From Planctomycetota bacterium (GTDB taxonomy: Bacteria > Planctomycetota > B15-G4 > SIAN01), in NCBI GenBank assembly GCA_031409275.1, contig JANNXA010000055.1, positions 32,001 through 96,000 of the forward strand: DNA of 64,000 nt, in the 5' to 3' direction. Shown in pieces: positions 25,482 through 62,795 of the stretch. Made by a program: the position numbers and the translations under genes. Within the stretch, counting starts at the first letter, position 1; each line of letters begins with the position of its first letter. The notes under the pieces are model-generated. The model did not search any database. It was given only the letters and a program-made list of their open reading frames with translations, and had not been told where the DNA came from.

Positions 25482-25483
25482 CG

Positions 25484-27493: not shown

Positions 27494-27494
27494 G

Positions 27495-29351: not shown

Positions 29352-29354
29352 CGA

Positions 29355-32300: not shown

Positions 32301-32948
32301 CAGGAAGAGCGTGACGACCCACTGGTCGTTCAACTTTCGGACGATGCCCTCGACGTGGACCTCGGGCTTCCGCGCATCAGGGCTGACCTTCGCGATCGGC
32401 CCTTCGCGCAACGCGACGGTGAACGGTTCGCCTCCGTGGGGCGTGCGCTTCCAGACCTTTTGCGGGTTGCCGCTCTTGGTCTCGAGCGAGGCGCTGTCGG
32501 TGCGCTGGTACTGGCCCCATGCGGCCGTGACCCGAACCTGCGTCACATGCTTCGCGACGACGAAGCTGAGGCCCAGCGACGAGGGAAACATCGTCCCCGT
32601 GCGGACACCGGAGAACTCTCGCGTGCCCTCCTCCCGGCTGTCGGGATGGTCGCCGGTCTCGATCGTGTCGTCTTCGCGCTGATCGAGGCTCGTTTCCTTC
32701 GGCGCGAGCATCCCGACGAGGTAGCGGTCCTTGACCGAAGACTCGTCGACCTCTTCGTCGGGGCCACCGGCCGGTCCTTGGAGTTCGAGCCGCACGAGGC
32801 GATCGATCTCCAAGCGGATGGTCGGCAGGCTCGGCGTGCGCGGAGCCACGAGCTGGGCGTCGGTCTTAGCGGAGGGGGCCATCTCCATCGCTCGAACCTG
32901 AGGCTCGGCAGGAGATCGCACCGGCTTGTCGGGATCAGGATCGGGCAC
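29355..32948 (-). CDS. drmA: DISARM SF2 helicase
   Basis: WRPFQLAF, WFPTAGGKTEAY, IQDELHLISGPLG, NMISVGVD, YIQATSRVGR. Confidence 0.92.
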   Translation of the reverse strand: MPDPDPDKPVRSPAEPQVRAMEMAPSAKTDAQLVAPRTPSLPTIRLEIDRLVRLELQGPAGGPDEEVDESSVKDRYLVGMLAPKETSLDQREDDTIETGDHPDSREEGTREFSGVRTGTMFPSSLGLSFVVAKHVTQVRVTAAWGQYQRTDSASLETKSGNPQKVWKRTPHGGEPFTVALREGPIAKVSPDARKPEVHVEGIVRKLNDQWVVTLFLVNEQEEVQDEKAGSAWLFQVELAVEGVDGSSVFERRPSMRGKFDDGTDLSREEREMAMLYRRYGEFAVGHGTATHSEVDPKDAWKARLLTTVAMPTSEVERVDAPTENDKGFEGLKGLELDMKVLAFKSRAELGPALRPLVQAYQRWIDLREGEITDPAARLDEYQSPAHDAITSCRAALRRVEAGIALLERDEQAAESFRFANYAMWKQRIHSKFAEDRRRGRKPDLEAIDADPANHLWRPFQLAFILLNLPSCTDLHHPERSHASEAVADLLWFPTAGGKTEAYLGLSAYVMGLRRLRGMVEGYSGEKGIAVLMRYTLRLLTLQQFQRASVLVCACEAIRREALEKGDKRWGEEPFRIGIWVGARTTPNWTEEAHEYIQEARGGGSKGFHKTGASGSPAQLTSCPWCGSEIKEGRDIDVETVAQGRCRTITYCGDTYGQCLFSKAKSKDEGLPVLVVDEEIYRRPPSLLIATVDKFAQMPWNGATQNLFGRVLRLCPRHGFRAPDLEDADSHPAKGSHPATKTIDHPPLRPPDLVIQDELHLISGPLGSLVGLYETAVDAMCTWKVGGKTVRPKVIVSTATIRNAAHQVRSLFLRRVAVFPPPGTDIADNFFSVRRKSSEDTPGRLYVGVCAPGRRLKGVLIRTYTAYLAATWLLYDKQYGKHTDPWCTLVGYFNSLRELGGMRRLVDDDVANRLLRMNERGLARRPRPLVEELTSRRNSTEIPGLLDLMEAVFDPALEKQREAERKARTTFTSQKPIDVLLSTNMISVGVDIGRLGLMVVAGQPKSTAEYIQATSRVGRRHPGIVCTVYNWARPRDLSHYERFGHYHGTFYEQVEPLSVTPFSARALDRGITALLISLARLRSPTLTANDGASRAQVTDVSAQQAIQEVRARVAGVSGSQALGDEVADRLRRVLDEWVNMARKKPMLVYRARKDGVSVPLLQKPEERDWETFTCLNSLRDVEPSPGLVLQEDATKGGK

Positions 32949-32952
32949 TCGA

Positions 32953-35900: not shown

Positions 35901-36999
35901 GTCGCATGTCCTCGTGGACGACGCCACCGTGGATCGCGCGGAAACACGCCAGCAGACGACACCAGGCGGACGACCGACGTTCGAGCACGTCGGGGCCGAG
36001 ACGGTCGGCGTCGGCGCGCAGGGTCGCACCGAGCGGCGAGAGCGCGTAGTGCCGCTGGTAGAAGGTCGACTTCGCGACCGGGAAGTACAGGTCGGCCTGC
36101 TCTTCCAGGTAGAAGACGAAGACGAGACGCATCATCACCGTCACGGCGGCCTCGTAGACCTGCTTCTCCGACACTCCGGCGAGGACCGTGCGGTTGGAGC
36201 GGCGGTCGAGTTCGTCGATGCGGCGCACGAGCAGCTCGATCGCCTCGCGCACCTGCAAGCCGAGCTGGATCGTGACGTCGTGCTGGTGCTCGGCGCTGCG
36301 TTCGATCAGGCGCTCAAGCGTGTCGTCGACGGCTCCAAGCGTGCGGCGCACGCCGAGCAGCGTGCGGAACGACTGGAGTGTGATCTTCTCCTCGAACCAC
36401 AGCGAGGCGTGCCAGGTCACGAACGTCGTCGTGCCCTTGTGCGGGGCGGACACGAGCACCCACTGCTCGCCGTTCGTCACGAGGCCGAGCGACAGGCCGG
36501 AGACGGAGGAGCCGCGTAGCAGCTCGACCATCCGCGTCAGGGGCGAGGCCTTCCAGTGAGCGTTCTCCAGGGCCCGTTGGAGATCCGTGTCGGGATCGTG
36601 CATCTGGATCACCAGGCGCGCAGGGCGATCGCCTTGGTCGACGATTCCGAGCAGGGCGACGTCGGGCTGGAGCGTCTCGCCGTGCAGGGCAGCGCGCACG
36701 CGGAGCTTGGCCGGGATTGCCGGACCATCGACGAGGACCTCGGGTCCATACTCGAGCGCACGCGACAGCACGAAGCGGATCCACTGCGTGTGGTAGGCAC
36801 GATCGTCGGAGTGCGCGTTCCATTCCCCGTGAGCGGCTTTCAGCTCGGCGCGTACGTCGCGATCGTCAGCTTCGAGTCCCTGCGGCAGGGCTTCCTTTAG
36901 GACGGGCAGCGACAGGAACGGGCCCGACACGTCGACCAGGCGCAGCCACTCGAGGTGACTTGCTCCCGCAGTCGGGGGTTTCGGCGCGCGGCGTTGCAT
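32953..36999 (-). CDS. drmMI: DISARM adenine methyltransferase (type IIG-like)
   Basis: GTHYTP, DLACGSGAFL, LYGVDIN, FHWLLEFPEVF, VGNPPF. Confidence 0.88.
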   Translation of the reverse strand: MQRRAPKPPTAGASHLEWLRLVDVSGPFLSLPVLKEALPQGLEADDRDVRAELKAAHGEWNAHSDDRAYHTQWIRFVLSRALEYGPEVLVDGPAIPAKLRVRAALHGETLQPDVALLGIVDQGDRPARLVIQMHDPDTDLQRALENAHWKASPLTRMVELLRGSSVSGLSLGLVTNGEQWVLVSAPHKGTTTFVTWHASLWFEEKITLQSFRTLLGVRRTLGAVDDTLERLIERSAEHQHDVTIQLGLQVREAIELLVRRIDELDRRSNRTVLAGVSEKQVYEAAVTVMMRLVFVFYLEEQADLYFPVAKSTFYQRHYALSPLGATLRADADRLGPDVLERRSSAWCRLLACFRAIHGGVVHEDMRLPAYGGHLFDPDRFPFLEGRKPGESWHTVQASPLGVDDATVLFVLEALQVLRVRDTGANGAETRRLSFRELGVEQIGNVYESLLDHTAKRAADAVVSLKGPKGEEPEIELRELEQCYDASDPSKLVSFVKEKTGRSEPSIKKDLEYEIEDDSARWLVACGNDHDLYGRVKPVAGLVREDRRQQPAVYPKDSVYVTAGADRRSTGTHYTPPSLTEPVVRYALEPLVYVGPAEGLPEAEWKLRTPVEILALRVCDLACGSGAFLVQACRYLAERLVEAWELLETANPGRLLVTPEGGLSTGAQGERIIPKDDAERQAIARRVVADRCLYGVDINPSAIEMAKLSLWLVTLQRDKPFGFLDHSMRCGDALLGVVHSWQLERLSLADSGAQLLLASGAVRRTLAVARSLREQLEVLPTESTRDVEHKAQLLTTAERATHDLHIAADGLVAWHLNSASKDKSSHQPSDTIQDLASDLLTLLEDSGAASESALRRATLTQQNVASFARNVPIDSGYSGPFHWLLEFPEVFDHESRPKGFDCVVGNPPFLGSMRIAEAIGDSVLASIKNRWRHRRGNADLVVYFLLRASELLHRRGAMGLVLSKAIAEGKGREIGLEWLLSRGWTICWSRTAIPWPGAAGVVVSPCVLISGVHKGTPLLNDTPVSAITSFLDSRANSRTPHVLPSNKGLVSQGTVLLGDGFTVSFDTAHAWMRSNPRYSQILRPYVNGMDVNTSPGHEPSSWVICADDLSEDQFAEFPEAIERVRRLVRPQRDVLHRQIHEACYWKHWDKRAAAYAELRQSSEQAIVIPVVSKYLNVAVVPSSWILSNKLIFLRRFDWHLFGVLCSGIHSAWALNYISHLGSTLSYSITACFSTFPCPPGSDDVRAAASEFESARLGSMRVRRCGLTSLYNKFHDPACNDEDVGVLRSLMAEMDRATLAAYEWSDLQPEHGFHTLVEGVRFSMQDSLRAEILDRLLALNHTRHAAEVEE

Positions 37000-37015
37000 G
37001 GGTGGTCTTTGGCTC

Positions 37016-40000
37016 TCACCACGACTCGGGAACGAGGAACGCAACAGCGACCGGGAAGCTCCAAGGCTTCGGATCACGGAAGCGGCGACGTAGTTCGGCC
37101 TGCTCCGCGCGCACGCGATCGGGAATCCGAATCAGTTCTTCCCGCAAGCTATCTGCGTCGCGAATCCATTGCGCCTGTTCGAGCGCGGTGAACAATCCGA
37201 GTTGCGTCTGTTTGCGCTCTTCGAGTTCGGTTTCGATCTGCTTCTGGAGTTCGGCGAAGATCGCCTCGATCTTCTTGCACTCGTCCTCGGCACGGTCCTC
37301 GAGCATCGTGTGCAGGTTCTTCGTGCGTTGCTGCTCGCGGAATTGCAGGGCTTCTCCGAGCGGTTTCTCGATGCGTGGCCAGAGAGCGCGGATGCGCTGC
37401 CGTTGCGCGTCGGTCGCGGATCGATCGGAGAGAGCACGTTCGATGCGCGATGTCTCCTCGACGGTATCGAAGCGCCGGAAACGGCCATCGCTCACGTAGC
37501 CACCGGACACGATCACCTGCTCGTGCAGGCGATGGCCGTCTGTTCCGAGGACGAGGATGCGCGACCACGCGACCACGGCGAGTTCCTTGCTCACGCTCGC
37601 CGGGACCGTGCAGGCCACGACACGATGGATCTGGCGTGCATCCTGCCCGGCGGAGATCTCCGCGCGCAGGAGCCGTTGCGACATGTCCACCAGCCGGTGG
37701 TTGAGGTGGGCGAGCACCACGTCATCGCGATCCTTCGCCACTCCGTGATCGAACGTGATCGGACGTTCCTTCTTCGTGTGCGGGTGCAGCAGACCGGCAA
37801 GGCATCCGCCCCACGCGCCGGTGAGCTTCGGCATCCAGAAGGTCTGCGAGCGAGCGTCGACGGGCCGTAGCGCAGGCTGCCGAGCGAGCCGCAGGGCAAC
37901 CTCGACCACACGGCGCACGGACTCGGGCGTGATGTGCAGCTCTTCGCGCGACTCGTCCAACGTGCGCCGAAGGCGAGCAACCTCCTCGGCGAGCTTGCGT
38001 TGGAACGAGAGCAGGCGGCGGATCGGCTCCGCTTCTTTCTCGGCGCGCGACGTGTCGATGTCGCGACGCTTCCCGAGCATGGCCTCCTCGACCTGCCTCG
38101 CGATGACCGGGCTCACCTTGCCGAACAGGTCGCTACCGATCAGCTGGATCTTCTTCGCAGCGACCATGAGGAACTCGAGGTCGCCGTCGAGATCGCCGGG
38201 TCGAGTGTTCGCGTCTCCCACGTTCTGGCGGTAGTCGGCCCCCACGAAGTGGAAGATCTCGGGTGCGAACTTCTGTCCATGGCGATCGATGCGACCATTG
38301 CGCTGTTCGAGAACGTTCGGGTTCCAGGGAATCTCGATGTGGATGAGTCGGTGGCAGTGGTTCTGGAGGTCGATCCCCTCGGAAGCCATGTCAGTGGCGA
38401 GGAGGATGCGGACCTTCGACTGCGCCGGGTCGGACTGGAAGGCGGCCTTGATGCGCTCGCGGTCGTCCTCGTCCATGCCGCCGTAGAGCAATTCGAGACG
38501 TTCGTCGACCGCGAAGCCGTGATGGGCGAGGATCCCATGGAGCCAGTTCTGGGTCGCGCGGTACTCGGTGAAGAGAATCACGCGCTCGTCGTTCCACCTG
38601 CCACCCGGGCGCAGCGTCACTTCGAGCCAGCGCAGGAGTTCGGCCGTCTTCGAGTCGGGGCGGTTCACTGCCTGGCGCGCTCGCGTGCTCAAGTCCTGGA
38701 GCAGTCGCTTCTCTTCGGCTCCCAGTTCGTCGAACGCGTTCGTCGACGCGACGATCGCATCCCCAAGATCCTCTTCGTGTTCGTCGTCGGTCGTTTCCTC
38801 GGGATCTTCGGCGGCTTGAAGCTGGCGACGCAGCACGCCTTCGGGAACCAATCGCTTGGGTGAGGCCTTCTCCTCGATCCCGCGCAGCGTCTTGACGTGC
38901 TTGTCGAGCGTGTCCGCGAAGGCCTGCGGCGAAGAGAACATCCGCTTCTTCAGCAACTTCAGCACGAACTCGGTCCCGATCGAGCGCGCACCGCTGGATC
39001 CACTTTCAGCTACACGACGCAGCTCTCCGTATCGCTTCAGGTCCTGGTAGAGCGCCTTCTCCTCGACGGTGTAGTGGATCGAAATCGCCTGGAGTTGGCG
39101 CTCGAGGAAAATGCGCTTTCCTTGCTCATCGACGAGCTCCGTCTTCAGGCGACGAACCGTCACTGCCTGCACCTGCTTGGGATCCTGGCGACGTACACCC
39201 CGCGTGAACCGCTGGTCGTCGAGCAGGTGCAGGAGCGCAGAGAAGCTCTCGGGAGAACCGTTGTGCGGCGTCGCTGAGAGGAAGAGCTTGTGCTCGAAGT
39301 GCGGTGCGAGCAACCGGATCGCGTCGGTGCGTTGGGATTCGATCGCGTAGTTCCCGCCCCCCGATGGAGCGATGTTGTGCGCTTCGTCGACGATCAGGAG
39401 TCCGTGGCGGCGCGGATAAGTCGGCTCGGTCGAGCCCGGGAGCGTCTCGCGGAAGAGTCGCAGCGGCATTTCGCGCTTCAGGTAGTCCATCGACGTGATC
39501 AAGCGCGGGAAGTGCGTCCACGGATTGACGTGAAGTCCGCGCTCACGACGCAGTCGCTTCATCGCCTCCGAGTCGACGATCACGAAGTCGAGACCGAACT
39601 TGTCGCGCATCTCGTCCTTCCACTTCGCGTTCAGCGCAGCGGGGCAGACGACGAGCACGTTCTGGATACGGTGGCGGAGCAGCAGCTCCTGGAGGACGAG
39701 CCCAGCTTCGATCGTCTTGCCGAGCCCCACATCGTCGGCGATCAGCAGGTTGACGCGCGGCATCTTGATCGCGCGAACGACGGGTTCGAGCTGGAAGCTC
39801 TCGATCGTCACACCGCTGCGGAAAGGCGACTGCAGCGAGCTCGCATCGGCCGACGAGACGGTGCCCCAACGGACCGCGTCGAGGAACGCGGAGAAACACT
39901 CGGGGTCGTCGAAGCCGTCCGGACGCGGCAGCTCGGGGCGTCCACGATTGACGATCCGCGCGCCCGGTTCGATCTCCCAGATGACCTCGAGCTCCTCACC

Positions 40001-40168
40001 CCATCCGTCTTCGTCCATCGAGGAGAGGCGGACGACGTGACTCGCTTCGTTCGTCGGCGGGTGGAGCGGGTCCTTCGGCAGCGAGGAGCTGACCACCTCG
40101 CGGACCACCCACTGACGACGGCGCACCTCGACGGAGTCGGCGGATTGGGGGACGGCTTGGGTCGTCAT
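37016..40168 (-). CDS. drmD: DISARM SNF2-like helicase
   Basis: LIADDVGLGKTIEAG, IVDEAH, LSATPHNG, LEQRNGRIDRHGQ. Confidence 0.92.
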   Translation of the reverse strand: MTTQAVPQSADSVEVRRRQWVVREVVSSSLPKDPLHPPTNEASHVVRLSSMDEDGWGEELEVIWEIEPGARIVNRGRPELPRPDGFDDPECFSAFLDAVRWGTVSSADASSLQSPFRSGVTIESFQLEPVVRAIKMPRVNLLIADDVGLGKTIEAGLVLQELLLRHRIQNVLVVCPAALNAKWKDEMRDKFGLDFVIVDSEAMKRLRRERGLHVNPWTHFPRLITSMDYLKREMPLRLFRETLPGSTEPTYPRRHGLLIVDEAHNIAPSGGGNYAIESQRTDAIRLLAPHFEHKLFLSATPHNGSPESFSALLHLLDDQRFTRGVRRQDPKQVQAVTVRRLKTELVDEQGKRIFLERQLQAISIHYTVEEKALYQDLKRYGELRRVAESGSSGARSIGTEFVLKLLKKRMFSSPQAFADTLDKHVKTLRGIEEKASPKRLVPEGVLRRQLQAAEDPEETTDDEHEEDLGDAIVASTNAFDELGAEEKRLLQDLSTRARQAVNRPDSKTAELLRWLEVTLRPGGRWNDERVILFTEYRATQNWLHGILAHHGFAVDERLELLYGGMDEDDRERIKAAFQSDPAQSKVRILLATDMASEGIDLQNHCHRLIHIEIPWNPNVLEQRNGRIDRHGQKFAPEIFHFVGADYRQNVGDANTRPGDLDGDLEFLMVAAKKIQLIGSDLFGKVSPVIARQVEEAMLGKRRDIDTSRAEKEAEPIRRLLSFQRKLAEEVARLRRTLDESREELHITPESVRRVVEVALRLARQPALRPVDARSQTFWMPKLTGAWGGCLAGLLHPHTKKERPITFDHGVAKDRDDVVLAHLNHRLVDMSQRLLRAEISAGQDARQIHRVVACTVPASVSKELAVVAWSRILVLGTDGHRLHEQVIVSGGYVSDGRFRRFDTVEETSRIERALSDRSATDAQRQRIRALWPRIEKPLGEALQFREQQRTKNLHTMLEDRAEDECKKIEAIFAELQKQIETELEERKQTQLGLFTALEQAQWIRDADSLREELIRIPDRVRAEQAELRRRFRDPKPWSFPVAVAFLVPESW

Positions 40169-40685: not shown

Positions 40686-42134
40686 ATGGCCACGCAGCCG
40701 CCGATCCGCGAAGTCGAGATGACGCTTGCCGACCTGCACGCGGCCCGCGCCGCCTACAACCCTCGCGTCATGCCCGAGCATGAGGCCGCCGCCCTCAAGA
40801 CATCGATCGAGCGCTTCGGGCTCGTCCAGCCGCTGATCTGGAACGCCCGCACCAAGCGCCTGGTCGGCGGCCATCAGCGCCTCGACGCCCTTCTCGCACT
40901 GGGTGAGACCCGTACAAAAGTGATCGTCGTCGACCTCGACGAGTGGGACGAGAAGGCGCTGAACCTCGCCTTGAACCGCGTCCACGGCGAGTGGGACTGG
41001 CCGAAGCTCGAGGCACTCCTGAATGAGCTTGCCGAACGCAATCCGGAGCTCCCTGCGATCGCCGGCTTCACCGACGCGGAGATGCAGCAGATCACCGACG
41101 AGGGGCACCTCCTCTACCTGCGGCTCAGCGAAACCAGGGCCGCTGCGCGCGCGGTTGAAGTCGCGGACGCGGCGGTCGTCGATCCGTCCGTGGACGACCA
41201 TGGCCCCGAAGCAGCGCCCGAGCAGCCGGTGACGCGGAGTGGCGATCTTTGGATCCTCGGCGAGCATCGCCTCCTCTGCGGCGACTCGACCAAGGCCGAA
41301 GATGTCACGCGCGTCCTGGCTGGCGAGCAGGCGACGCTGCTGGCCACCGACCCGCCCTACTGCGTCGACTACACCGGCACCAACCGCCCCACCCACGACG
41401 GCAAGCCGGGCGGCAAGGACTGGACCGACGTCTATCGCGAGATCGACATCGCCGACCTCGGGACGTTTCTCGATGGTTTTTTCACGGCTGCGATGCCGCA
41501 TCTGGCGCCGGATGCGCCGATCTATCTGTGGCATGCGCACATCCAGCAGCCGGTGATCCTCGCGACCTTCGCGAAGCACGGACTGCTCTTCCACCAAGTG
41601 ATCGTCTGGGTGAAGCCCGCTGGGGTCTTCGGCCACAGCTTCTTCCAGTGGCGCCACGAGCCGGCGGCCTTCGGCTGGCGTCAGGGCCACAAGCCTGAAC
41701 ACGGCCAAGCGCAGCTTGACACCGTCTGGGAGGTCGATTGGGATGGGAAGTCGAGGTTCTCGACGTTTCATCCGACCTCGAAGCCGCCGAAGCTGTTCGA
41801 GATCCCGATGGCGCTGCACACGAAGCCCGGCGACATCGTGCTCGAAGGGTTTTCAGGCAGCGGCAGCCAGATCATCGCGGCGGAGCGCATGGGCCGCCGT
41901 TGCCGCGCAATCGAACTGTCGCCAGCGTTTGTCGACGGGACGATCCTGCGCTGGCAGAAGGCGACCGGCAAGGTCGCGCGGCTGGCCATGGTGGCGGGCG
42001 CGAACGACGCGGGACCGAGCTTCGACGAGGTCAGCGCGCAGCGGCGTGCGGCGCCGGTGCCTGCCGAGCCGATGACCGCCGCGCCGACGCCCCCGCGCCG
42101 CAAGCGAGCCGCCCGCGCAGCGGCGGCGACCTGA
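40686..42134 (+). CDS. ParB-fused DNA methyltransferase (copy B)
   Basis: Same motifs as 8106-9590; close paralog. Confidence 0.9.
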   Translation: MATQPPIREVEMTLADLHAARAAYNPRVMPEHEAAALKTSIERFGLVQPLIWNARTKRLVGGHQRLDALLALGETRTKVIVVDLDEWDEKALNLALNRVHGEWDWPKLEALLNELAERNPELPAIAGFTDAEMQQITDEGHLLYLRLSETRAAARAVEVADAAVVDPSVDDHGPEAAPEQPVTRSGDLWILGEHRLLCGDSTKAEDVTRVLAGEQATLLATDPPYCVDYTGTNRPTHDGKPGGKDWTDVYREIDIADLGTFLDGFFTAAMPHLAPDAPIYLWHAHIQQPVILATFAKHGLLFHQVIVWVKPAGVFGHSFFQWRHEPAAFGWRQGHKPEHGQAQLDTVWEVDWDGKSRFSTFHPTSKPPKLFEIPMALHTKPGDIVLEGFSGSGSQIIAAERMGRRCRAIELSPAFVDGTILRWQKATGKVARLAMVAGANDAGPSFDEVSAQRRAAPVPAEPMTAAPTPPRRKRAARAAAAT

Positions 42135-42175: not shown

Positions 42176-42865
42176 TTGCAGGCGACCGTGGCCGCCCACG
42201 ACGAACCGCCCATCTCCGTCCGCGCCTACGCGCGCCGACGCGGAGTGAGCCACACTGCCGTGCAGCGCGCGATCGCCGATGGCCGCCTCGTGCGTTCGGT
42301 GCTCCGCGTCGGCGACGGGATGGCTCAGATCCTCCCGACCCTGGCGGATCGCGAATGGGACCGACGCACGAGCCCGGCGTTCAGCCGAATCGGCGAGCCG
42401 CACGCGACGCCACCACGACTCCCGATTGCGCCGCGCCCGGTCGCTCCTGCAGCACCGATCGCGCCGCGCCCAGATCCGCGCCCCGACGCACGCGGCGGCC
42501 CCGACGACTACCGCCGGACGCTCGTCGTCGAAAAGGTGGTCAAGACGCGGCTCGCGCAGGTCCAGCTCGACGAGCAGCTTGGCCGCTTGATCGACGCGAC
42601 CGACGCCGGCGACGCGCAGTTCGAGATCGCGCGCCTCGTCCGCAACCAGATCCAGGAACTGCCGGATCGGCTCGCGGGTGAACTCGCGCTCGAGAGCGAC
42701 GCGCATCGCGTACGCGAAATCCTCGCCCGCGAGATCGACGACGTGCTGCGCAAGCTCGCAACCCGGCTGCGGACGTTGGCGGCCACAGCCGGATCGGCAG
42801 CTGCCGGCGCGGCGCCAGGTCGCACCGCCACCGCGCCGGCGCCCACCGCCATGCCAGTGCAGTAG
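42176..42865 (+). CDS. Terminase small subunit, Nu1-like (copy B)
   Basis: AGGAG RBS before TTG; ISVRAYARRRGVSHTAVQRAI; paralog of 9617-10513. Confidence 0.75.
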   Translation: MQATVAAHDEPPISVRAYARRRGVSHTAVQRAIADGRLVRSVLRVGDGMAQILPTLADREWDRRTSPAFSRIGEPHATPPRLPIAPRPVAPAAPIAPRPDPRPDARGGPDDYRRTLVVEKVVKTRLAQVQLDEQLGRLIDATDAGDAQFEIARLVRNQIQELPDRLAGELALESDAHRVREILAREIDDVLRKLATRLRTLAATAGSAAAGAAPGRTATAPAPTAMPVQ

Positions 42866-42893: not shown

Positions 42894-44831
42894 GTGTCGA
42901 CCGCCCTCGAGCTCTTCGCCACTCGCTGGTCCGACGGCCTCATGCCCGACGAGAAGACCTCGATCTGCGCCTGGATCGAAGAGCACATCGTCCTCTCCGA
43001 CGGCGAGACCAGCGCGCCCGGCCCCTACCGCTTCCGCCGTGCGCCGTACATGCGTGACGTGCTCGAGGCACTTTCCCCCGACTCGCCGGTACAGCGCGTC
43101 CTCGGCATGAAGGGCGGCCAACTGGGCTGGACGATCGGCGCTGCGGCCTACGTCGGCTTCCTCATCTGCCAAGCGCCGCGCACGATCCTCTTCGTCTCGC
43201 CCACGGTCGACCTCGCGAAGCGCGCGTCGCGGCGCAAGGTTGGACCGATCTTCGAGCAGTCGGACGTGCTGCGCGATCGTGTCCGCGCATCGATCAGCCG
43301 CCGCTCTGGCAACACGACGCTGATGAAGGAGTTCTTGGGCGGGGCGCTGATTTTCGCCGGCGCGAACTCGGGCGCGGGGCTGCGCCAGACCTCGGCGGCG
43401 GTCGCCATCCTCGACGAGATCGACATCTACCCCGCGTCGCTCCCTGGCGAGGGCGACCCAGTGCTCCTCGCCGAACGCGCGACCAAGACGTTTCCGCGCC
43501 GCAAGCACCTCTACATTTCAACGCCGACCATCGCCGGTCGCTCGCGCATCGAGGAACTTTTCGAGCAGTCGGACCAGAGCCGCTACTTCGTGCCGTGTCC
43601 GCTTTGCGGGCACTTCCAACGACTGGTGTTCACGGACAAGGAGACCGGCCGGCACGCGCTGCGTTGGGAGGGCATGCCGCCGGATCTCAAGGTCTGGTAC
43701 GAGTGCGAAGCGTGCAGCCAGCCGATCGAGGAAGGCAAGAAGGCGTGGATGCTTGAGCGCGGCGAGTGGCGGGCGGCGGTACCGGCGCTCTCGAGCCGCT
43801 TCCGAGGCTTTCAGATTTCATCGCTCTACGCCGCGCCCGGCACGTTTTCGTGGACCGACGTCGTCGAGCAGTTCCTGGCCGCAAAGCAGGACGTCGAGAA
43901 GCTGCGCGTCTTCGTGAACCAGGTTCTCGGCGAGACCTGGGAAGAGCGCGGGGACGCGCCACCGTGGGAGGACCTTTACCGGCGGCGCGAGGTCTATCCA
44001 CGCGGCGTGGTGCCGATCGGCGGGCTCGTGCTCACCGCCGGCGCCGACGTGCAGCGCGACCGCATCGAAGTCGAGGTCGTGGCCTGGGGCGCCGGGCTCG
44101 AGTCCTGGTCGATCGACTACATCGTGATCGCCGGCGACTCGGCGACCGAAGCACCGTGGCGTGAACTCGACCGCATTTTCGATCGCCAGTGGAAGCACGC
44201 CGGCGGCCTACATCTGAAGATCCGCGCGCTCGCCGTCGACTCCGGCTTCGAGACCCAGGGCGTCTACAACTGGGTGCGCCGCAAGTCGGCCGACAGCGTG
44301 TTCGCAGTGAAGGGTTCGGATGCGGTGCCAGCGCTCGTCGGGCAACCAACCTACGTCGACTTCACCTGGCGCGGGAAGAAGGCGTACCGCGCGATCCGGC
44401 TCTGGCATGTCGGGGTCAGCGTCGCCAAGCGCGAGCTCTACGGCTGGCTACGGCTGCCGGTCCCGCTGAACGTGGCGAAGGGTGAGCCGTACCCCGCCGG
44501 CTTCGCGCACTTCCCGGAGTACTCCGAAGAGCACTTCAAGCAGCTGACGGCCGAGCAGCTGGTCGCACGCGCCCGCAAGCGCGACCACACGCTCGCCTAC
44601 GTCTGGACCAAGAAGCATGAGCGCAACGAGGCGCTCGACGCCCGCATCTACGCGCGCGCTGCCGCAGCGATCCTCGGCCTCGACCGCAATACCGACGCCG
44701 ACTGGAAGCAACTGGCCGCAGCGCTCGTGCGGCCAGAGGTCACGCCGGTGCGACCTGCGCCGAACCGTGGGCGCCCGCGCCGAGAGGGGTACTTCACCTC
44801 GCACCAAGACGGACGGTTTTTCGGCGACTGA
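42894..44831 (+). CDS. Terminase large subunit, gpA family (copy B)
   Basis: GGAGGA RBS, GTG start; ATPase, Zn and nuclease motifs as in copy A. Confidence 0.92.
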   Translation: MSTALELFATRWSDGLMPDEKTSICAWIEEHIVLSDGETSAPGPYRFRRAPYMRDVLEALSPDSPVQRVLGMKGGQLGWTIGAAAYVGFLICQAPRTILFVSPTVDLAKRASRRKVGPIFEQSDVLRDRVRASISRRSGNTTLMKEFLGGALIFAGANSGAGLRQTSAAVAILDEIDIYPASLPGEGDPVLLAERATKTFPRRKHLYISTPTIAGRSRIEELFEQSDQSRYFVPCPLCGHFQRLVFTDKETGRHALRWEGMPPDLKVWYECEACSQPIEEGKKAWMLERGEWRAAVPALSSRFRGFQISSLYAAPGTFSWTDVVEQFLAAKQDVEKLRVFVNQVLGETWEERGDAPPWEDLYRRREVYPRGVVPIGGLVLTAGADVQRDRIEVEVVAWGAGLESWSIDYIVIAGDSATEAPWRELDRIFDRQWKHAGGLHLKIRALAVDSGFETQGVYNWVRRKSADSVFAVKGSDAVPALVGQPTYVDFTWRGKKAYRAIRLWHVGVSVAKRELYGWLRLPVPLNVAKGEPYPAGFAHFPEYSEEHFKQLTAEQLVARARKRDHTLAYVWTKKHERNEALDARIYARAAAAILGLDRNTDADWKQLAAALVRPEVTPVRPAPNRGRPRREGYFTSHQDGRFFGD

Positions 44832-44933: not shown

Positions 44934-45116
44934 ACTGGCAACCTGGGAGTGGCACGTTGCCACCGGGGCGCCCTAAGTTGCCACCCGCCGCCCTCCGGAG
45001 GCGTCCCCGGAGAACCGTGGCCATCCTCTGGGTGGCAACGCCGAATTCCTGAACCGTTGGTAGCGACGTTCCGCGCGCGAGCGTCACCCCCGGAGAAAAG
45101 AGGGCGGGAAGGACCC
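44934..45116 (-). promoter_or_regulatory. Putative cos packaging site B
   Basis: Minus strand GGGTCCT (45116-45110), 20 nt, GGGTGACGCTCG (45089-45078); TGGCAAC/GTTGCCA repeats in 44936-45039. Confidence 0.65.
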
Positions 45117-45321
45117 AACGTGGGGGGCATGGGGCCGGCTCGCCCGGGCGCCCGCGTCGCGCACGACGTTGGCTCGTGGCGCGCACCTCCCGCGAGCGCC
45201 TGCAAAGTGCGACGGATGTTGCAGGGCATCATCCTGCGTCTCCTTTCCACCGATGCGCCCCCTGCTCTTCCGTTCTAGTTTTTGGTGGCAGACATTTCTC
45301 GGCATCCGACTGGAGGCGGGC

Positions 45322-46140
45322 GTGAACGAATCCAACACGGGCTCTCGCAAGTCCCCGCGTTCCTCAACGTCTGCGACCCGCCGCCGCACCCGTCGCACCC
45401 AGCCGTCGCCGATCGAGCCCGTGCTCGATAGCTGCTTTCACGCTCTGCGACACTTGGTTCGCATGCAGCGCGCGATCATTCACCTGTCTCGTCCATCTGA
45501 AGGCGCGGTCGCAAACACCGCCGCGATCGAACGCCAGCTTGCTGAATCGTGGGACTTGATCTGGCGCCAGTCACGCGCGTGGTCGACATGGATTGAAGAA
45601 CCGAACGTCTCGAAACTCCTCAACGCCGCCCAAGAGACCACCCGAGAAGTTGCTCGCCTCGCGTTGAGGCTGCACCGTGTCGGAGGTCACATCTTGAGGT
45701 TGTCGGATGTGTTAGATCAGTGCGTGACCATCACGACGATGGATGCGGACGGCAGGACTCCTAAGTCACAGTCGACCGAGCCCATTTGCCTCCAAACCTC
45801 GGCGTCGATGGCCGACATCAAGGCCTACCTGGCTCAAGTCGATCTACCGTCGCTTCAAGCCGCCGCCGACGAGCTTCGGCTTCGGTTGGTCGGCAGCTTC
45901 GTGCCAACGAGAAACCAACGTCGGCTGCACGAAACACTGACGGCCCATGGTCCGCTGAAAAAGGAGGCACTGGCGGCGCGATTGAAAGCGGACCCGTCGA
46001 AGTTGTACGACCGCTGGGGGCTTACGCAGCTGATGGACCTTGAATACGTCGCTTCCGGTTCAGATGGTTACTCCGCCATCGGCGAGTTACCGCGTGCTTC
46101 GCCTCGGGCGAAAAACCGACGGAGCTTGGCCCCAATCTGA
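45322..46140 (+). CDS. Hypothetical protein with C-terminal winged-helix-like domain
   Basis: GGAGG RBS; TRNQRRLHETL..LKKEALAARL..LTQLMDLEYV. Confidence 0.55.
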   Translation: MNESNTGSRKSPRSSTSATRRRTRRTQPSPIEPVLDSCFHALRHLVRMQRAIIHLSRPSEGAVANTAAIERQLAESWDLIWRQSRAWSTWIEEPNVSKLLNAAQETTREVARLALRLHRVGGHILRLSDVLDQCVTITTMDADGRTPKSQSTEPICLQTSASMADIKAYLAQVDLPSLQAAADELRLRLVGSFVPTRNQRRLHETLTAHGPLKKEALAARLKADPSKLYDRWGLTQLMDLEYVASGSDGYSAIGELPRASPRAKNRRSLAPI

Positions 46141-46262
46141 CCCCCATCGCTCCGGGGGAATCGCCGAAGTCCGAGACCTAAAGTGCCTCCTGACGTCGTC
46201 GTTCACATCGTCTTTGCTTTCCCTCGCTCGCCCAGCGAATCGCTGGCGACCGGGGGCAAACG

Positions 46263-46574
46263 ATGGCCAACGATGAACCGCTCATCACGCTCGCTCTGGC
46301 TGCCAAGCTTCAATGGCTGCCGCGACGGCGCAAGGGCGCCCGGCCGCACCTAACCACCCTCCTGCGTTGGGTGAAAGTCGGAATCGCCGGCATCCGACTC
46401 AGGGCTTGGCGGGTCGGCAACGCCTGGTGCACAACCGAAGGCAGCCTTCGAGAGTTCTTCGCTGAACTCGCCGTCTCGCCAAAGATCTCCGTCGCGCTCG
46501 GCGACGACCGCACAGCCGGGGTTGCGCGACGACGACTCCTGACGCGTGCGCAGAGTGACGGCACCGATGCCTGA
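46263..46574 (+). CDS. DUF1580-like HTH protein
   Basis: PLITLALAAK..RPHLTTLLRWVKVG..GIRLRAWRVG..WCTTEGSLREFF. Confidence 0.75.
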   Translation: MANDEPLITLALAAKLQWLPRRRKGARPHLTTLLRWVKVGIAGIRLRAWRVGNAWCTTEGSLREFFAELAVSPKISVALGDDRTAGVARRRLLTRAQSDGTDA

Positions 46575-49047
46575 GCTCGCTCACGTTCGACGGTTGCTCA
46601 ATCTTCTCGAGAACGCCAAACCGGCTGGCGCTCAGTGGAAGGCGCGTTGTCCAGCCCATGAGGACAAGAGTCCCTCCCTCTCGATCTGCATCGGCAGCGG
46701 CGGGATGGTTCTCCTGAAGTGCTTCGCCGGCTGCACCGTCGAGAGCGTAGTCTCCAAGCTGAACCTCACGCTGCGCGACCTCCGGCCGGACGACGGCGCC
46801 GACACGCGGCCGCCCGCGCGCAGCAGGACGAGGCGGGCGACGCCGGCCTTCGCGACGCTCGACGAGGCTGCGCAGCGGGCGACGCCCAGACGTTACAAGC
46901 TCGTCGCGACCTGGACCTATCACGACGCCGACGGCAGGGATGCGTTCTGGGTCTGCCGCTACAACGCGGTCGTCCCGCCGAAGGACAGCGCGAAGCCCAA
47001 CAAGACGTTTCGGCCGATACATCGAACTGCCGAGGGATTCGTAGTCCGCGATCCGCCCGGCATGTTGCCGCTCTACCGCCTCCCCGACCTGCGCGCGGCA
47101 CCGGCTGCGACCGTCTTCCTCCCCGAGGGCGAGCGGAAGGCTGACCTGCTCGCCTCTCTCGGGCTCGTCGCGACGACGACGGCGCACGGTGCCGAGTCGC
47201 CGAAGAAGACCGACTTGTCGGCCCTGGCCGGCCGCGACGTGGTGCTCCTGCCCGACAACGACGACGCCGGCATGAAGTACGCGCAGGTGATCGTCGCGCT
47301 CCTGCACGCCCTCACGCCGCACGCCAAGGTGCGCATCGTCCACCTCCCCGACCTGCCGGCGAAGGGCGACGCGGTCGAGTTCATCATCGACCGCCGCGCG
47401 AAGGGCAAGAGCGACGTCGAGATCCGCCGCGAGATCGATGAGCACGCGGCAAACGCGAGCGTGGTGCCATGTCCGCCACACGCATCGCGAGCTCGTCCAC
47501 GAGTGGCGTCTCGAGACGGCGGGCTACCACGCATTATCGTGACCGATCGCCCCCTGCGCGACATCGTCGACGACGCCGTGCGCGCGATCGACGCGCAAAA
47601 CCATCCACCTGTCATCTTTCAGCAGTCGGGATCCGTGGTACGCGTCTGCATTGACGACCACGAAACTCCAATCATCCAACGGATGGACGAAGCACGGATG
47701 ATCGAGGCGCTGACGCGCGCGTCCGATCTGTTCAAGGTCCTCAAGAAGGAATTCGTCCACGTCTCGCCATCAAAGGTCGTCGCGCAGACCATCCTGGCAC
47801 TCAAGACGTTTCCCTTCCCATCGCTCGAAGCAATCACCGAGATCCCGGTTCTGCGCTCGAGCGGCACAATCCTTTCGACGCCGGGCTACGACCCCGAGAC
47901 CCGTCTCCTCTACTCCCCGGCTTCGGGGCTGACGGTTCCCGTAGTCCCCGAATCGCCGGACGCGGACCAGATCGCCGCAGCGAGCGCGCTGCTCCGCGAA
48001 GTCATCTGCGATTTTCCGTTCGCCGACAACGCCAGTCGCACGAACGCGGTCGCGCTCATGCTGACGCCAACCCTGCGTCCGGCGATCGACGGCCACGTAC
48101 CTCTCGCGATCGCCGACGCGCCGCGCATGGGCACCGGCAAGTCGCTCCTGGTGTCGGCGAACGCGCTGATTAGCACTGGGCGGGCGGCCGCGATGATGAG
48201 CGTGCCGGAGAACGAGGCGGAATGGCGCAAGCAGCTCACGAGCGTGTTGGCGACCGGCGACACGTACGTCACCATCGACAACGTCGAGGGCGTACTGCGG
48301 TCGCCCAGCCTCTCGCGTTTCCTCACCTGTAGCACATGGGTGGACCGGCTCTTGGGCGGCAACGACCGGCCCAAGTTGCCGCAACGCACGACCTGCTGCG
48401 CGAACGGCAACAACGTACAGGTGCTGGGGGATCTCCGGCGGCGCTGCTACCGCATCCGGCTGGATGCGCAGCTGGCGAAACCGTGGACGCGGAGCGGCTT
48501 TCGCCACCCTGAGCTACTCGCTTGGGTCACCATCAACCGAGGCGCGATCCTCGCCGCAATCCTCACTCTCGCGCGAGCGTGGTTTGCGGCGGGAAGGCCG
48601 TCCTCCAACGGAGCTCGATTCGGAGGCTTCGACGGCTGGGCGAAGACCGTCGGCGGCGTGCTCATCCGCGCCGGCTTTGAGGACTTCCTCGGCAATCAAG
48701 ACGAGTTCTTCGAGCAGATAAGCAGCGAGGACACCGAGTGGGAGGTGTTCCTCGCGACCTGGCGCGATGTGTTCGGATCGACTCCGATCACGGTCGCACA
48801 ACTCGTCGAGCGCATCCAGATCGACGACAAGTTGAAGGGGGCGCTTCCTGGCCCCCTCGCGGAGTACATCCCGGCGGCACCGGGGAGAAACCTCGCAATG
48901 CGCCTGGGCAAGGCGCTCGTCGCGCGCTGCGACACGCGGTACGGCGAGCAGGGGTTCCACCTCCGCCGCGCAAGCCGCGACGCCCACGCCAAGACGAACT
49001 GCTGGCGCGTGGTGACCAACCAGGAGGCGCACCATGAGCAGGTCTAG
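46567..49047 (+). CDS. Primase-helicase (Zn finger + TOPRIM + P-loop domain)
   Basis: CPAHEDKSPSL..CFAGC; PEGERKAD, LPDND; APRMGTGKS, TIDNV, GNN. Confidence 0.85.
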   Translation: MPELAHVRRLLNLLENAKPAGAQWKARCPAHEDKSPSLSICIGSGGMVLLKCFAGCTVESVVSKLNLTLRDLRPDDGADTRPPARSRTRRATPAFATLDEAAQRATPRRYKLVATWTYHDADGRDAFWVCRYNAVVPPKDSAKPNKTFRPIHRTAEGFVVRDPPGMLPLYRLPDLRAAPAATVFLPEGERKADLLASLGLVATTTAHGAESPKKTDLSALAGRDVVLLPDNDDAGMKYAQVIVALLHALTPHAKVRIVHLPDLPAKGDAVEFIIDRRAKGKSDVEIRREIDEHAANASVVPCPPHASRARPRVASRDGGLPRIIVTDRPLRDIVDDAVRAIDAQNHPPVIFQQSGSVVRVCIDDHETPIIQRMDEARMIEALTRASDLFKVLKKEFVHVSPSKVVAQTILALKTFPFPSLEAITEIPVLRSSGTILSTPGYDPETRLLYSPASGLTVPVVPESPDADQIAAASALLREVICDFPFADNASRTNAVALMLTPTLRPAIDGHVPLAIADAPRMGTGKSLLVSANALISTGRAAAMMSVPENEAEWRKQLTSVLATGDTYVTIDNVEGVLRSPSLSRFLTCSTWVDRLLGGNDRPKLPQRTTCCANGNNVQVLGDLRRRCYRIRLDAQLAKPWTRSGFRHPELLAWVTINRGAILAAILTLARAWFAAGRPSSNGARFGGFDGWAKTVGGVLIRAGFEDFLGNQDEFFEQISSEDTEWEVFLATWRDVFGSTPITVAQLVERIQIDDKLKGALPGPLAEYIPAAPGRNLAMRLGKALVARCDTRYGEQGFHLRRASRDAHAKTNCWRVVTNQEAHHEQV

Positions 49048-49051
49048 ATTC

Positions 49052-49169
49052 TGCGGGGCTTGCGGAGGTTGCGGGGCTTGTTTTCGCGCATTCCCATGTG
49101 AATTCACCACCTCGGTTTTCTTTCGCGCGACGAGTGAAACAACCACCGCAAGACCCGCAAGACCCGCAG
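49052..49169. repeat. Inverted arrays of 9-bp repeats (candidate replication origin)
   Basis: TGCGGGGCT TGCGGAGGT TGCGGGGCT ... CCGCAAGAC CCGCAAGAC CCGCAG around a T-richer spacer, right after the primase stop. Confidence 0.75.
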
Positions 49170-49263
49170 TCCAGATCGTGCCTCCGTCTGGCGTACCTCG
49201 GCGTGCGGCCGCCGTCGGCGTTTGCGCCCACCAGCTCATCCGCCACCATCGAGCCGGCGTGCG

Positions 49264-49560
49264 ATGACAGACATTTTGCGCGTCTCCAACTTTCGCTTCA
49301 CCGCGAGAAACGAGGCCACTGCCAAGGCCGACCGTCTCGGCCGCCTCGCGTTCGACGTCGGCCCGCTCCATGTCAGCGGCGTGCAACTCCATCGATCCGC
49401 TGACGGCCGGATCCACCTCTCGTTCCGGAGCTTCGGCCGCATCGACCGGCGCGGCCGCCAGCACCTCGGGCTACGCCCCAAGGACGACGACGCTCGCCTC
49501 GCCTTGGAGATCGCGATCTTCACCGCGCTGCGAATCAGGTCGGAGGAGGCGGCGCGATGA
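49264..49560 (+). CDS. SpoVG-like small protein
   Basis: LGRLAFDVG.LHVSGVQLHRSADGRIHLSF..RP..D pattern. Confidence 0.5.
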   Translation: MTDILRVSNFRFTARNEATAKADRLGRLAFDVGPLHVSGVQLHRSADGRIHLSFRSFGRIDRRGRQHLGLRPKDDDARLALEIAIFTALRIRSEEAAR

Positions 49561-49766
49561 ACATCACCGTTTACGCGCCAGAGGCGATGAAGCCCTCTGA
49601 TCGCAAGACCGAAATCGCGGCCCTTCTCGCGATCGCGTTCGTCCGTCTGCTCGCCCGCCGGAACGGCCTTGCAATGACCTCCCGAGGCGAGCCCTCATGC
49701 ACCACGGTTGACGGCCGGGAGAGGCGGGGTCGCCTCGCGCCGACGACCAGGAGGGAGGTCCGATGA
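49557..49766 (+). CDS. Small conserved protein preceding DUF2924 (copy B)
   Basis: DRKTEIAALLAIAFVRLL..GEPSC; paralog of 16284-16496. Confidence 0.65.
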   Translation: MNITVYAPEAMKPSDRKTEIAALLAIAFVRLLARRNGLAMTSRGEPSCTTVDGRERRGRLAPTTRREVR

Positions 49767-50224
49767 CGAAAACGATGCAGCAGGAGATCGCCGCGTTGCA
49801 CGCGCTCGACGTGCCCGCGCTGGTCGCGCGGTTCGGCGAGTTGTTCGGCAAGCCGCCACGGTCGAAGCACCGCGCGTGGCTGCTGAAGAGGTGCGCCCAT
49901 CAGCTCCAACTCGCGCGCTGCGGCGGGCTCTCGGAGGTCGCGCGGAAGCGTCTCGCCGAGCTGATGGCCGAGATCGACTTGCCGATCGAGCCGGTAGACG
50001 CGACGACCGGCACGCTCGCGCGCGCGAAGCAGCGCGGGCTCACGCTCGGGACGACCTACACGCGCATCTGGCGGGATCGCGAGGTCCGCGTCGTGGTCGT
50101 CGACGGCGGGTTTGAGCACGAGGGCATCGTCCACAAGAGCCTGAGCGCCGCCGTGCGCGCGATCACCGGTGCGAAGTGGAACCCGTCGATCTTCTTCGGT
50201 CTCAAGTCGAGGAAGACCACGTGA
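49763..50224 (+). CDS. DUF2924 family protein (copy B)
   Basis: GGLSEVAR..GTTYTRIWR..KSLSAAVRAITGAKWN..FFGL. Confidence 0.88.
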   Translation: MTKTMQQEIAALHALDVPALVARFGELFGKPPRSKHRAWLLKRCAHQLQLARCGGLSEVARKRLAELMAEIDLPIEPVDATTGTLARAKQRGLTLGTTYTRIWRDREVRVVVVDGGFEHEGIVHKSLSAAVRAITGAKWNPSIFFGLKSRKTT

Positions 50225-51804
50225 GGCCGAACGCGACGAGCACGCGCAAGCTATCGCGCAACGGCGTGCCGCCCGCGACGAAGCGCGTCGCGATCTACAC
50301 GCGCCAGAGCGTCGATCGCGGCGACGAGTACGGCTCGACCGACGCGCAGCGCGAAGCGGTGGCGGCCTACGTCAGCTCGCAGCGCGGCGTTGGCTGGGTT
50401 GCCGTCGAAGCCCGCTACGACGACCTCGGCTTCTCCGGCTCGACGGTCGAGCGGCCGGCGTTCCAACGGCTCCTGCACGATGTCGACGCGGGTGGCGTCG
50501 ACGTGATCGCCGTTTACAAGATCGACCGCCTGTCGCGCTCGCTCCTCGACTTCACGCAGCTGATGCGGCGGTTCGAGCAGAAGGGCGTCGAGTTCGTCAG
50601 CGTGACGCAGCAGTTCAACACGTCGACGTCCGTCGGCCGCATGACGCTGAACTTGCTCGCCACCTTCGCGCAGTTCGAGCGCGAGACGATCAGCGAGCGC
50701 ACGCGAGACAAGATCGCGGCGACGCGGCGGCGCGGTCTCTGGACCGGCGGTCGGCCGGTGCTCGGCTACGACGCCGTCAACGGCAAGCTCGCCGTCAACG
50801 CCGACGAGGCCGCGCGCGTCCGCGCGATCTTCCAGCTCTACCTGGAGCGCGGCTCGCTGCCGACCGTCGTCGAGGAGCTGCGCGCACGCGCCTGGGCGAA
50901 CAAGACCTGGACGAACAAGCACCAGAACCTCGTCCCTGGCCGCGCCTTCGACAAGCTCGGCGTCCGCCGCCTGCTCACAAACCCGCTCTACGTCGGCCGG
51001 ATGACGCTCGGCGACGAGGTCCACGACGGCCAGCACGAGGCGATCGTCGACGCGAAGACGTGGGATGCGGTCCAGGCACTGCTCACGCCGCACGGCCAGG
51101 AGCGGCCGCGCGCGGAACGGAACAAATGGGGCGTGCTGCTGCGCGGGCTGCTGCGCTGCGCGACGTGCGGCTCGGCGATGACGCACCACGTCGCGCACGG
51201 CCGCCGTCGCCGGTACAGCTCTTACGTCTGCGCGAAGTATGCGAAGGAGGGCGCGGCCGCGTGCCCCGGCTCGCGCGTCGCCGTCGGCGAGATCGAGAAG
51301 TACGTCGTCGAGCAGGTCCAGACCGTCGGGTGCGACCCGAAGCTCGTCGTCGCGACGATCGACGCGGCCAAGGCGCGGCTCGCCGCGCGGCGGCCGGAGA
51401 TCGCGGCCTCGTTGGACCAGATCGACCAGGATCGCCAGCGCGCAGAGCGCGAGCGCAAGGACCTCGTCGCGGCGACCCGCAAGGGCGGCGAGGGATCGCA
51501 CGCGCTCGGCGCCCGGCTTGGTGAGGTCGACGAGGCGATCGCCGGAATCGACGCGCGGCAGCTCGACCTCGAAGGCGAGCGCGCGGCGCTCGAAAACGCC
51601 GTGATCGACGGAGCCGACCTGCGCGGCGCGATCTCCGCGTTCGCGCCGGTGTGGGCCGAGCTGACGCCGCGCGAGCGGGCGCGTGCACTCAACCTCTTGA
51701 TCGACCGCATCACGTTCAACGGAACCACCAGCGAGGTCGCGATCACGTTCCGGGCGAACGGGTTCCGCAGTCTCGGCGCTGCCAACAATGGAGGCAACGA
51801 ATGA
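50221..51804 (+). CDS. Large serine recombinase (copy B)
   Basis: AIYTRQS, KIDRLSRS, CATC zinc ribbon; paralog of 16957-18543. Confidence 0.93.
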   Translation: MRPNATSTRKLSRNGVPPATKRVAIYTRQSVDRGDEYGSTDAQREAVAAYVSSQRGVGWVAVEARYDDLGFSGSTVERPAFQRLLHDVDAGGVDVIAVYKIDRLSRSLLDFTQLMRRFEQKGVEFVSVTQQFNTSTSVGRMTLNLLATFAQFERETISERTRDKIAATRRRGLWTGGRPVLGYDAVNGKLAVNADEAARVRAIFQLYLERGSLPTVVEELRARAWANKTWTNKHQNLVPGRAFDKLGVRRLLTNPLYVGRMTLGDEVHDGQHEAIVDAKTWDAVQALLTPHGQERPRAERNKWGVLLRGLLRCATCGSAMTHHVAHGRRRRYSSYVCAKYAKEGAAACPGSRVAVGEIEKYVVEQVQTVGCDPKLVVATIDAAKARLAARRPEIAASLDQIDQDRQRAERERKDLVAATRKGGEGSHALGARLGEVDEAIAGIDARQLDLEGERAALENAVIDGADLRGAISAFAPVWAELTPRERARALNLLIDRITFNGTTSEVAITFRANGFRSLGAANNGGNE

Positions 51805-62321: not shown

Positions 62322-62795
62322 CGTCGTCCTCCCCGCGCGCCCATTCGCGCGTGGACGACATGCACGCTTCGGCGGAGGGGCATTGCAAGCGCCACGACCC
62401 GGCGACGACCGGGTCCGCTCTCCATCCTGTCAACCAGCGTGCAGGAGAATCGAGTCGAACAAGATCGAAGAAAGCCGATGCGGATGAGGGGGCGCTGTCA
62501 ACCACCTCGCCGAAGTTCGCATTTGCGTATCGATCGATCGGCTTCCGGCTCTCCGTTTTCTGTCAACCACGGTCCCGCTCTCCCCTTCGAACGGAGAGTT
62601 CGAGAGCAAGTCGGCGATCCGATTCGCATCACGAGATTGGGGGTGCGTTCGATCCGACGCGAATGGAGAGCACCGCGTCCGTTTCCGGACGCCGCATCCC
62701 GGGGACACGTCGCGACTTGCGACGCCTCGCGAGCACTCGACGAGCGCCTCGCGTCAACCGCTTCGGCGGGGAGCGGGCCGGCCGGAGCGCGCCAT

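Follow-up and report, generated by a model that had tools for sequence, protein, structure and literature searches.

A lambda-type cos site behind the terminase genes of tandem planctomycetotal islands that look like a novel satellite form

Two related islands in tandem at a tRNA-Asn gene

The window analysed here, a stretch of 64,000 nucleotides from the genome of a Planctomycetota bacterium, holds two related genomic islands in tandem, designated A and B (Table 1). The gene order common to both is ParB-methylase, TerS, gpA-type TerL, an inverted cos site, replication genes, a DUF2924-like ORF and a serine recombinase. The site under study is the cos of copy B; in both islands the cos is positioned behind terL and faces it.

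Table 1. Features of islands A and B, with positions counted from the first letter of the window
Feature	Position	Strand	Basis or remark
ParB-methylase, TerS (helix 1 SVSAY) and TerL of A	8139..12443	plus	
cos of copy A, whole	12550..12740	minus	
GTTGCA repeats of copy A	12557, 12570, 12650		
R3-like site of copy A	12656-12671	minus	
Core of copy A	12702-12712	minus	
cosQ of copy A	12734-12740	minus	
A module: phage-type replication initiator, DUF2924-like ORF, large serine recombinase	14679..18543	plus	
Second attachment core with flanking arms (A/B junction)	22082..22091	minus	
DISARM class I cargo (drmD, drmMI, drmA, drmB, drmC), left arm of B	26672..40168	minus	PADLOC
ParB-like/N6-N4 DNA methylase of B	40686..42134	plus	Pfam N6_N4_Mtase; ParB-like matches on the A paralogue
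TerS of B, N-terminal winged helix, helix 1 SVRAY	42176..42865	plus	phrog_57; model and fold search; start codon uncertain
TerL of B, gpA type, intact	42894..44831	plus	Pfam GpA_ATPase and GpA_nuclease
Three more GTTGCC/GGCAAC repeats of B, R2/R1-like	44936..44983		both orientations
R3-like predicted TerS site of B, core GTTGCC	45033..45047	minus	holds the shared block GCAACGCCGAATT
CGCTA-like element of B, between cosN and R3	45060..45065	minus	conserved family-wide
cosN-like core of B, predicted nick region	45076..45090	minus	homologous RcBaka motif holds genome end
GGGTGACGCTCG of B, 20 nt after GGGTCCT	45089-45078	minus	
cosQ-like heptamer GGGTCCT of B, predicted termination signal	45116-45110	minus	identical to lambda heptamer
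B module after cos	45169..51804	plus	order: unknown ORF, small HTH-like ORF (label by eye), then the next three rows
Primase of B module	46546-49047	plus	
DUF2924-like ORF of B module	49763-50224	plus	
Large serine recombinase of B module	50221-51804	plus	
Attachment core GGGGAGCCAA, right end of B	62795..62804	minus	3' end of tRNA-Asn (62796-62870)

The 3' end of tRNA-Asn is repeated, together with its flanking arms, at the A/B junction and at six other locations elsewhere in the genome. Since it recurs at the junction, B was delimited at 22,092-62,804 (40.7 kb). An exact search for direct tRNA repeats in the window found none, and the 10-bp core emerged by alignment. Island A extends past the window start and measures up to 45.1 kb; this extent is less sure than that of B, being based on junction repeats some of which flank, elsewhere, just 1.5 kb. 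A genome of the same genus has an apparent empty site. We infer that the serine recombinase acts at tRNA-Asn; no tyrosine integrase was found in the window. The islands thus carry an attachment site, a recombinase and a replication module of their own, a trait of phage-inducible chromosomal islands (PICIs).

The two islands sit in a long tandem array at tRNA-Asn, whose junctions lie at C55:293, 7415, 8968, 54091 and 94804, C35:7742, and C17:13922 and 27232. These junctions have the 10-bp core in common, arms of several hundred bases and repeated GGTTGAC/GGTTAAC boxes; similar junctions occur in another genome, G003. Some units of the array are cassette-like, just 1.5 kb long with a toxin-antitoxin-like pair. 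A type II secretion/pseudopilin-like cluster (window 1-5062; C55:26728-37062) falls within the interval assigned to A; the five nearest relatives yielded no close match to its TPR gene. Adjoining DISARM in B (22853-26536) are a C5 methylase, a HEPN gene and a GmrSD/DUF262-like gene. In the right arm of B, cargo genes are flanked by direct repeats of 84 bp (56110-56193 and 57243-57326) and of 91 bp (58252-58342 and 61747-61837), which suggests cassette insertion.

Other parts of the islands recur as well. A conserved intergenic inverted-repeat element follows the small-gene cluster in A (19845-19926) and in B (54813-54929), and has a third copy at C4:26985-27060. The replication initiator of A has short tandem repeats, possibly iterons, ahead of it (14146-14171) and inside it (15141-15168). 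Homologues of the unknown ORF, HTH-like ORF and primase of B are found with a tyrosine integrase at C4:20326-25338, followed by defence-like genes; no terminase match was found in that element. A third copy of the terminase region, on contig C15 (L317), has the methylase, TerS and cos and lacks TerL; its methylase is 95% identical to that of A. Contig C26 (L316) carries A-like replication genes with a different serine recombinase, and may form with C15 a third related element in pieces.

Anatomy of the site and its relation to lambda-type cos

In copy A, as in copy B, the minus strand reads GGGTCCT (12740-12734), 20 nt, and then a core, here GGGTGGCGTCCG. The pattern GGGTCCT-N20-GGG[TC]G[AG]CG has two matches in the 5.59-Mb genome, which are the sites of these two copies. 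The initial annotation had noticed this motif at the same position in copy B, in an otherwise poorly conserved intergenic region, and had taken it to be cos-like and under selection. The alignment of the A and B intergenic regions bears this out. The local score was 48, as against a mean of 22 and a maximum of 35 in 1000 dinucleotide shuffles, none of which reached 48, and conservation peaked at two blocks: cosQ with the core, and GCAACGCCGAATT, common to B (45035-45047) and A (12659-12671). Ungapped identity was 5-8/10 from -19 to +40 and 7-10/10 at +61 to +80, and near background outside these blocks (1/10 at +41 to +60, 1-5/10 past +90). The cos-like character is upheld by the heptamer, by the spacing of R3, by a profile built from other loci and by a phage genome end that falls in the motif, as follows.

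In the lambda record, the same heptamer lies 23 nt ahead of the left end and a core GTTTCC occupies bp 54-59; R3 is placed at bp 50-65 (PMC9026076). The likeness to lambda cos and its gpNu1/gpA terminase extends to the order of subsites, to a gpA-type TerL, to a winged-helix TerS (weak fold match to 1J9I) and to the R3-like core, GGCGTTGC[A/C] here and GGCGTTTCC in lambda. Beyond the R3-like site inverted R repeats occur, as expected of cosB. The GTTGC core stands at +78 from cosQ in A, B and the C15 copy and at +77 in the related locus L035, whereas the lambda core stands at +84, and the overhang is probably shorter here. Two further differences from lambda are that the site lies behind terL, facing it, and that the variation between A and B maps to helix 1 of TerS instead of the recognition helix.

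A cos profile was built from 16 sites at other terminase loci. It matched the C15 copy (E 4e-4), B (E 1.5e-3) and L035 (E 0.31), copy A being absent from the matches at E<=1; it aligned weakly with RcOceanus (E 0.005) and with the lambda junction (E 0.17). Among 51 matches, seeds and duplicates counted, 47 were upstream of terS on the terminase strand, and the remaining four, namely B (twice), C15 and L035, were all inverted. A scan of viral sequences for the cos pattern returned at least 120 stretches. Of those listed, 36 were followed by terminase genes on the same strand and none showed the inverted layout; for the other 84 the flanking DNA contained no terminase, 40 of these having flanks of 300 bp only.

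Rhodobacter RcC phages are among the cultured phages that match best in TerL, at 44% identity. These have a homologous cos motif, a gpA terminase, a ParB-type gene near cos and 11-base 5' overhangs (PMC8601537); they differ from the islands, as does the uncultured phage G106 described below, in being complete phages with gpW, portal, capsid and tail. The RcBaka genome record starts and ends within the homologous motif. Such a clean end was found in one of three Rhodobacter records, one that differs from its relative by two G; the nick could not be placed from RcOceanus and RcMeacham, the records of which are not cut cleanly at cos. On the strength of the RcBaka ends and the RcC overhangs, an 11-nt 5' overhang of B is tentatively placed at 45088-45078, the nick positions being estimates; positions 5, 8 and 9 distinguish the overhangs predicted for the two copies. 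The site matches lambda-type cos in its cosQ, its cosN-like core and its cosB-like repeats, with nicking and packaging as the predicted functions, and a cognate pair, a gpNu1-like TerS and a gpA-like TerL, is encoded beside it.

Association of a TerS residue with a repeat base

The repeats of A and B had also been described as different. They do differ, and consistently so: B contains four copies of GTTGCC and none of GTTGCA, and A contains five of GTTGCA (strand-counts, one site being palindromic) and none of GTTGCC, for shuffle means of 0.08-0.22. They are not unrelated, however, since one hexamer is involved, GTTGCA or GTTGCC, of which the last base changes; B also holds GCACGTTGC (44952-44960), in common with an A repeat. 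The differing base corresponds to bp 59 of lambda R3, which is named as important for recognition (PMC4669245).

The initial annotation had gone on to propose that each element has its own packaging specificity. TerS is predicted to have an N-terminal winged helix, with weak matches to Xis, BldC and lambda gpNu1 domains (E 0.24 for the gpNu1 fold); no match was obtained when TerS was compared with lambda gpNu1 by BLASTP or with solved structures by profile. A and B do not differ in the predicted recognition helix, for which reason any difference in specificity is probably modest; helix 1 reads SVSAY in A and SVRAY in B.

A motif filter supplied 32 related TerS for an analysis of covariation with the repeats, L031 being dropped as probably frameshifted. 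The helix-1 position best explained the sixth base of the core: Arg with C in 28 cases, Ser with A in two, Lys with C in one and Arg with A in one, this last being a mis-parsed repeat that reads GTTGTC. Residue pairs in the recognition helix accompanied the central bases (T/Q with TG in 12 of 15, V/Q with TT in 5 of 5, R/Q with AG in 3 of 3) and may form a candidate code with them; V/L or P/L was further seen with TA. Viral contigs were then scanned for cos sites picked by repeat type alone. Scanning for GTTGCA gave 24 stretches, 15 of them with a TerS match; the nine that were confidently aligned had Ser (seven), Ala (one, seen earlier) or Thr (one), and none had Arg. With GTTGCC, nine stretches were obtained, five with TerS, and all four aligned had Arg, three of these having been seen earlier.

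Pooling gave 26 distinct TerS/cos pairs, three low-scoring alignments being left out. Arg in helix 1 went with C in 14 of 14, and a residue other than Arg with a base other than C in 11 of 12 (Fisher P = 1.6e-6, uncorrected). The base thus tracks the TerS residue across relatives, as own specificity would have it, and the covariation holds in these counts; it is less firm by descent. On a tree made without the trait region the two traits changed six and seven times, and well-supported branches offered only three independent pairs, none of them opposite (sign test, P = 0.25). Copy A departs in both traits from B and L035, although these are its closest relatives.

Lambda, 21 and N15 form specificity groups (PMC4669245, PMC9026076). 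According to the first of these sources, lambda-type terminases have no cosN specificity, overhang bp 7-12 vary freely, mismatched ends cause only about a fourfold loss, and termination in lambda is not cosB-specific (PMC4669245). For this reason the cosN difference was rejected as a source of specificity, and what the initial annotation called a different core is probably mostly neutral. A partial preference of A and B for their own sites, at initiation only, is what the TerS and repeat sequences make likely. The suggestion that such a preference serves to avoid cross-talk between tandem neighbours is unsupported: besides the indifference of lambda termination to cosB, both repeat types occur in ordinary phages, so that they need not have arisen against a neighbour.

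Terminases without a portal and the satellite reading

No match to PF05136, PF04860 or PF05065 (lambda-type portal, HK97-type portal and capsid) was found in the genome, which is 92.9% complete, so that a prophage could be missing from it; nor did the eight structural proteins of G106, the nearest phage, match anywhere in it. Portal, capsid and tail genes linked to terL, the mark of an intact prophage, are absent from both islands. As a control, 401 genomes of the phylum were searched for gpA matches at E<1e-40, and all 11 other strong matches had a portal within about 5 kb. The TerL proteins of A and B are 80% identical and form one clade with that of L035. All three loci have the same portal-less layout, which in L035 continues with replication genes and a tyrosine integrase; upstream of L121, a near-identical twin of L035, lie type I restriction genes. 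No additional clade member turned up when 100 relatives were searched for TerL and TerS, and a metagenome scan yielded only L121 and L122, nearly identical to L035. For TerL of A, B and L035 dN/dS is 0.16-0.19 at dS 0.7-0.9, for TerS of A and B it is 0.22, and the C-terminal tail of TerL is kept. The island terminases are under purifying selection.

G106, the nearest complete phage, is uncultured and 46,530 bp long with terminal repeats. Its TerL is 63%, its TerS 46% and its ParB-methylase about 56% identical to those of the islands, and it also carries gpW, portal, capsid and a contractile tail. Its cos and terS are 12.7 kb apart. An operon on the opposite strand, which includes the ParB-methylase, points its 3' end at this cos, much as terL does in the islands; the flank ahead of cosQ is almost identical to those of A and C15. 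A G106-like phage is the likely source of the islands' methylase, terminase and cos. G106 (L352, L355-L357) also has a second cosQ-like remnant just ahead of terS, and is a candidate helper type or donor lineage. Relative to its length, B amounts to 88% and A to as much as 97%.

The TerL loci surveyed, counting duplicates, numbered 148. A portal followed in 80 of them and was missing from at least 1.5 kb of downstream sequence in 37; the other 31 were too short. The portal-less loci are not all satellites: at least two of the 37, L055 and L072, are rearranged phages with the portal on the other strand. In six others (L014, L018, L027, L033, L127 and L133) cos and terminase are accompanied by one or more of serine recombinase, primase, and restriction or DISARM-like cargo, the cos being in the usual upstream position. 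These loci stand elsewhere in the TerL tree, so portal loss may have occurred more than once. In the host genomes of portal-less loci, a lambda-type portal was absent from four of five; the fifth has two, beside two of its four gpA genes. Several of the six portal-less cos-TerS-TerL loci come from Candidatus Eisenbacteria. In one genome, G105, two gpA genes are accompanied by portals and two are not, so that helper and satellite may occur there together.

Given its own TerS and gpA TerL and the lack of portal, capsid and tail genes, the island probably spreads as a satellite, its own terminase cutting cos and loading the island into empty heads of a helper phage. Contigs examined for depth and joints, two of them possibly from the source sample, gave no sign of a circle or of defined ends, which contigs are unable to reveal. 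It might instead be a decaying prophage, a G106-like phage stripped of head and tail genes and no longer moved, with cos and terminase as leftovers. The phage origin of methylase, TerS, TerL and cos would suit such decay, as would the C15 copy without TerL and the frameshifted TerL of three of the five portal-less loci just mentioned, frameshifts that may be assembly errors. We think it unlikely, however, in view of three portal-less copies that keep TerL about 80% identical, one rearranged layout, intact frames and dN/dS below 0.2, and of the fact that all repeats of A are of the type matching A's own TerS residue. Slightly less probable still is that terminase and cos act mainly in interference, by competing for helper proheads, or in transfer in place between tandem cos sites, and not on excised islands of unit length. 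Defence cargo is common in these loci, and cosA and cosB have the same orientation, 32,376 bp apart, so that the 32.4 kb from cosB to cosA, with DISARM, could be such a segment; lambda packages the DNA between tandem prophage cos sites, with termination that is not cosB-specific (PMC4669245). Against this, both A and B come with a replication gene, a recombinase and attachment ends of their own. The interval is moreover only 70% of the length of G106, under the lower packaging limit of lambda, which is roughly 78%.

A different doubt concerns specificity: the cos sites may be real and used while A and B recognise them alike, the A/C change being tolerated drift and either terminase starting at either site. 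This we hold to be a possible though not the favoured account. TerL at 80% identity, the identical predicted recognition helix and the few independent contrasts (three, P = 0.25) all fit it, and shared specificity was inferred for Monarch and N15 from identical recognition helices (PMC4669245). It sits less well with the pooled counts, with the lack of Arg among the nine TerS aligned in the GTTGCA-only scan, and with copy A departing from its nearest relatives in both traits.

Under the satellite reading, the island would excise and replicate to concatemers; TerS would bind the GTTGC[A/C] repeats; TerL would nick at the core and dock on the helper portal through its C-terminal tail; and packaging would run leftwards to the next cosQ-cosN. 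At initiation B (Arg, GTTGCC) and A (Ser, GTTGCA) would prefer their own cos, termination and the cut core being likely common to both.

Known satellites resemble the islands in part. Gram-negative PICIs such as EcCICFT073 are likewise integrated, with their own replication genes, a lambda-type cos and accessory defence genes and without virion genes (PMC6092414, PMC9026076, PMC10085698). As described there, they use the TerL of the helper, with Rpp or their own TerS, and are small with the integrase at the end, whereas the islands here encode TerS and TerL and measure 40-45 kb with a serine recombinase mid-element; only the C15 copy fits the PICI trait of having no TerL and relying on that of a helper, TerL being intact in A and B. 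The cf-PICIs do encode both TerS and TerL, but by the same account they carry their own head genes (capsid, protease, head-tail connectors) and steal tails (PMC10085698), and no portal or capsid was found here. Tycheposons (bioRxiv 10.1101/2020.12.28.424599) and VEIMEs (PMC9618062) are similar in lying in tandem at a tRNA 3' end with cargo, some with a serine recombinase or TerS; their reported packaging genes are TerS or a capsid protein, with TerL from a helper, unlike the islands. In the literature searched, mostly open-access texts, there was no description of a portal-less satellite that encodes TerL. The cos site belongs to a known type, and the element that carries it looks like a novel form of satellite.

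We give an even chance to a fuller proposal: that A and B represent an undescribed class of satellites of phage-genome size, which bring only cos, TerS and TerL, hijack empty proheads and tails, and fill the remaining head space with defence cargo such as DISARM, while a TerS/cosB code (helix-1 Arg/Ser to C/A, recognition-helix pairs to central bases) lets tandem residents prefer their own DNA. The satellite families compared, as their sources present them, either borrow the large terminase of the helper or build their own heads. If the proposal is true, an island that brings a whole motor and takes just the prohead from a helper would stand between these types and close the gap, and 40-45 kb of defence genes could be moved per particle. 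The tandem pair is a natural experiment: its two terminases are 80% alike and do not differ in the predicted recognition helix, and a single base and a single residue vary together. The divergence of terminase specificity could be tested on it precisely and at little cost. Should the wider TerS-repeat code prove true, cos sites and packaging compatibility would become readable from metagenome sequence, across gpA phages.
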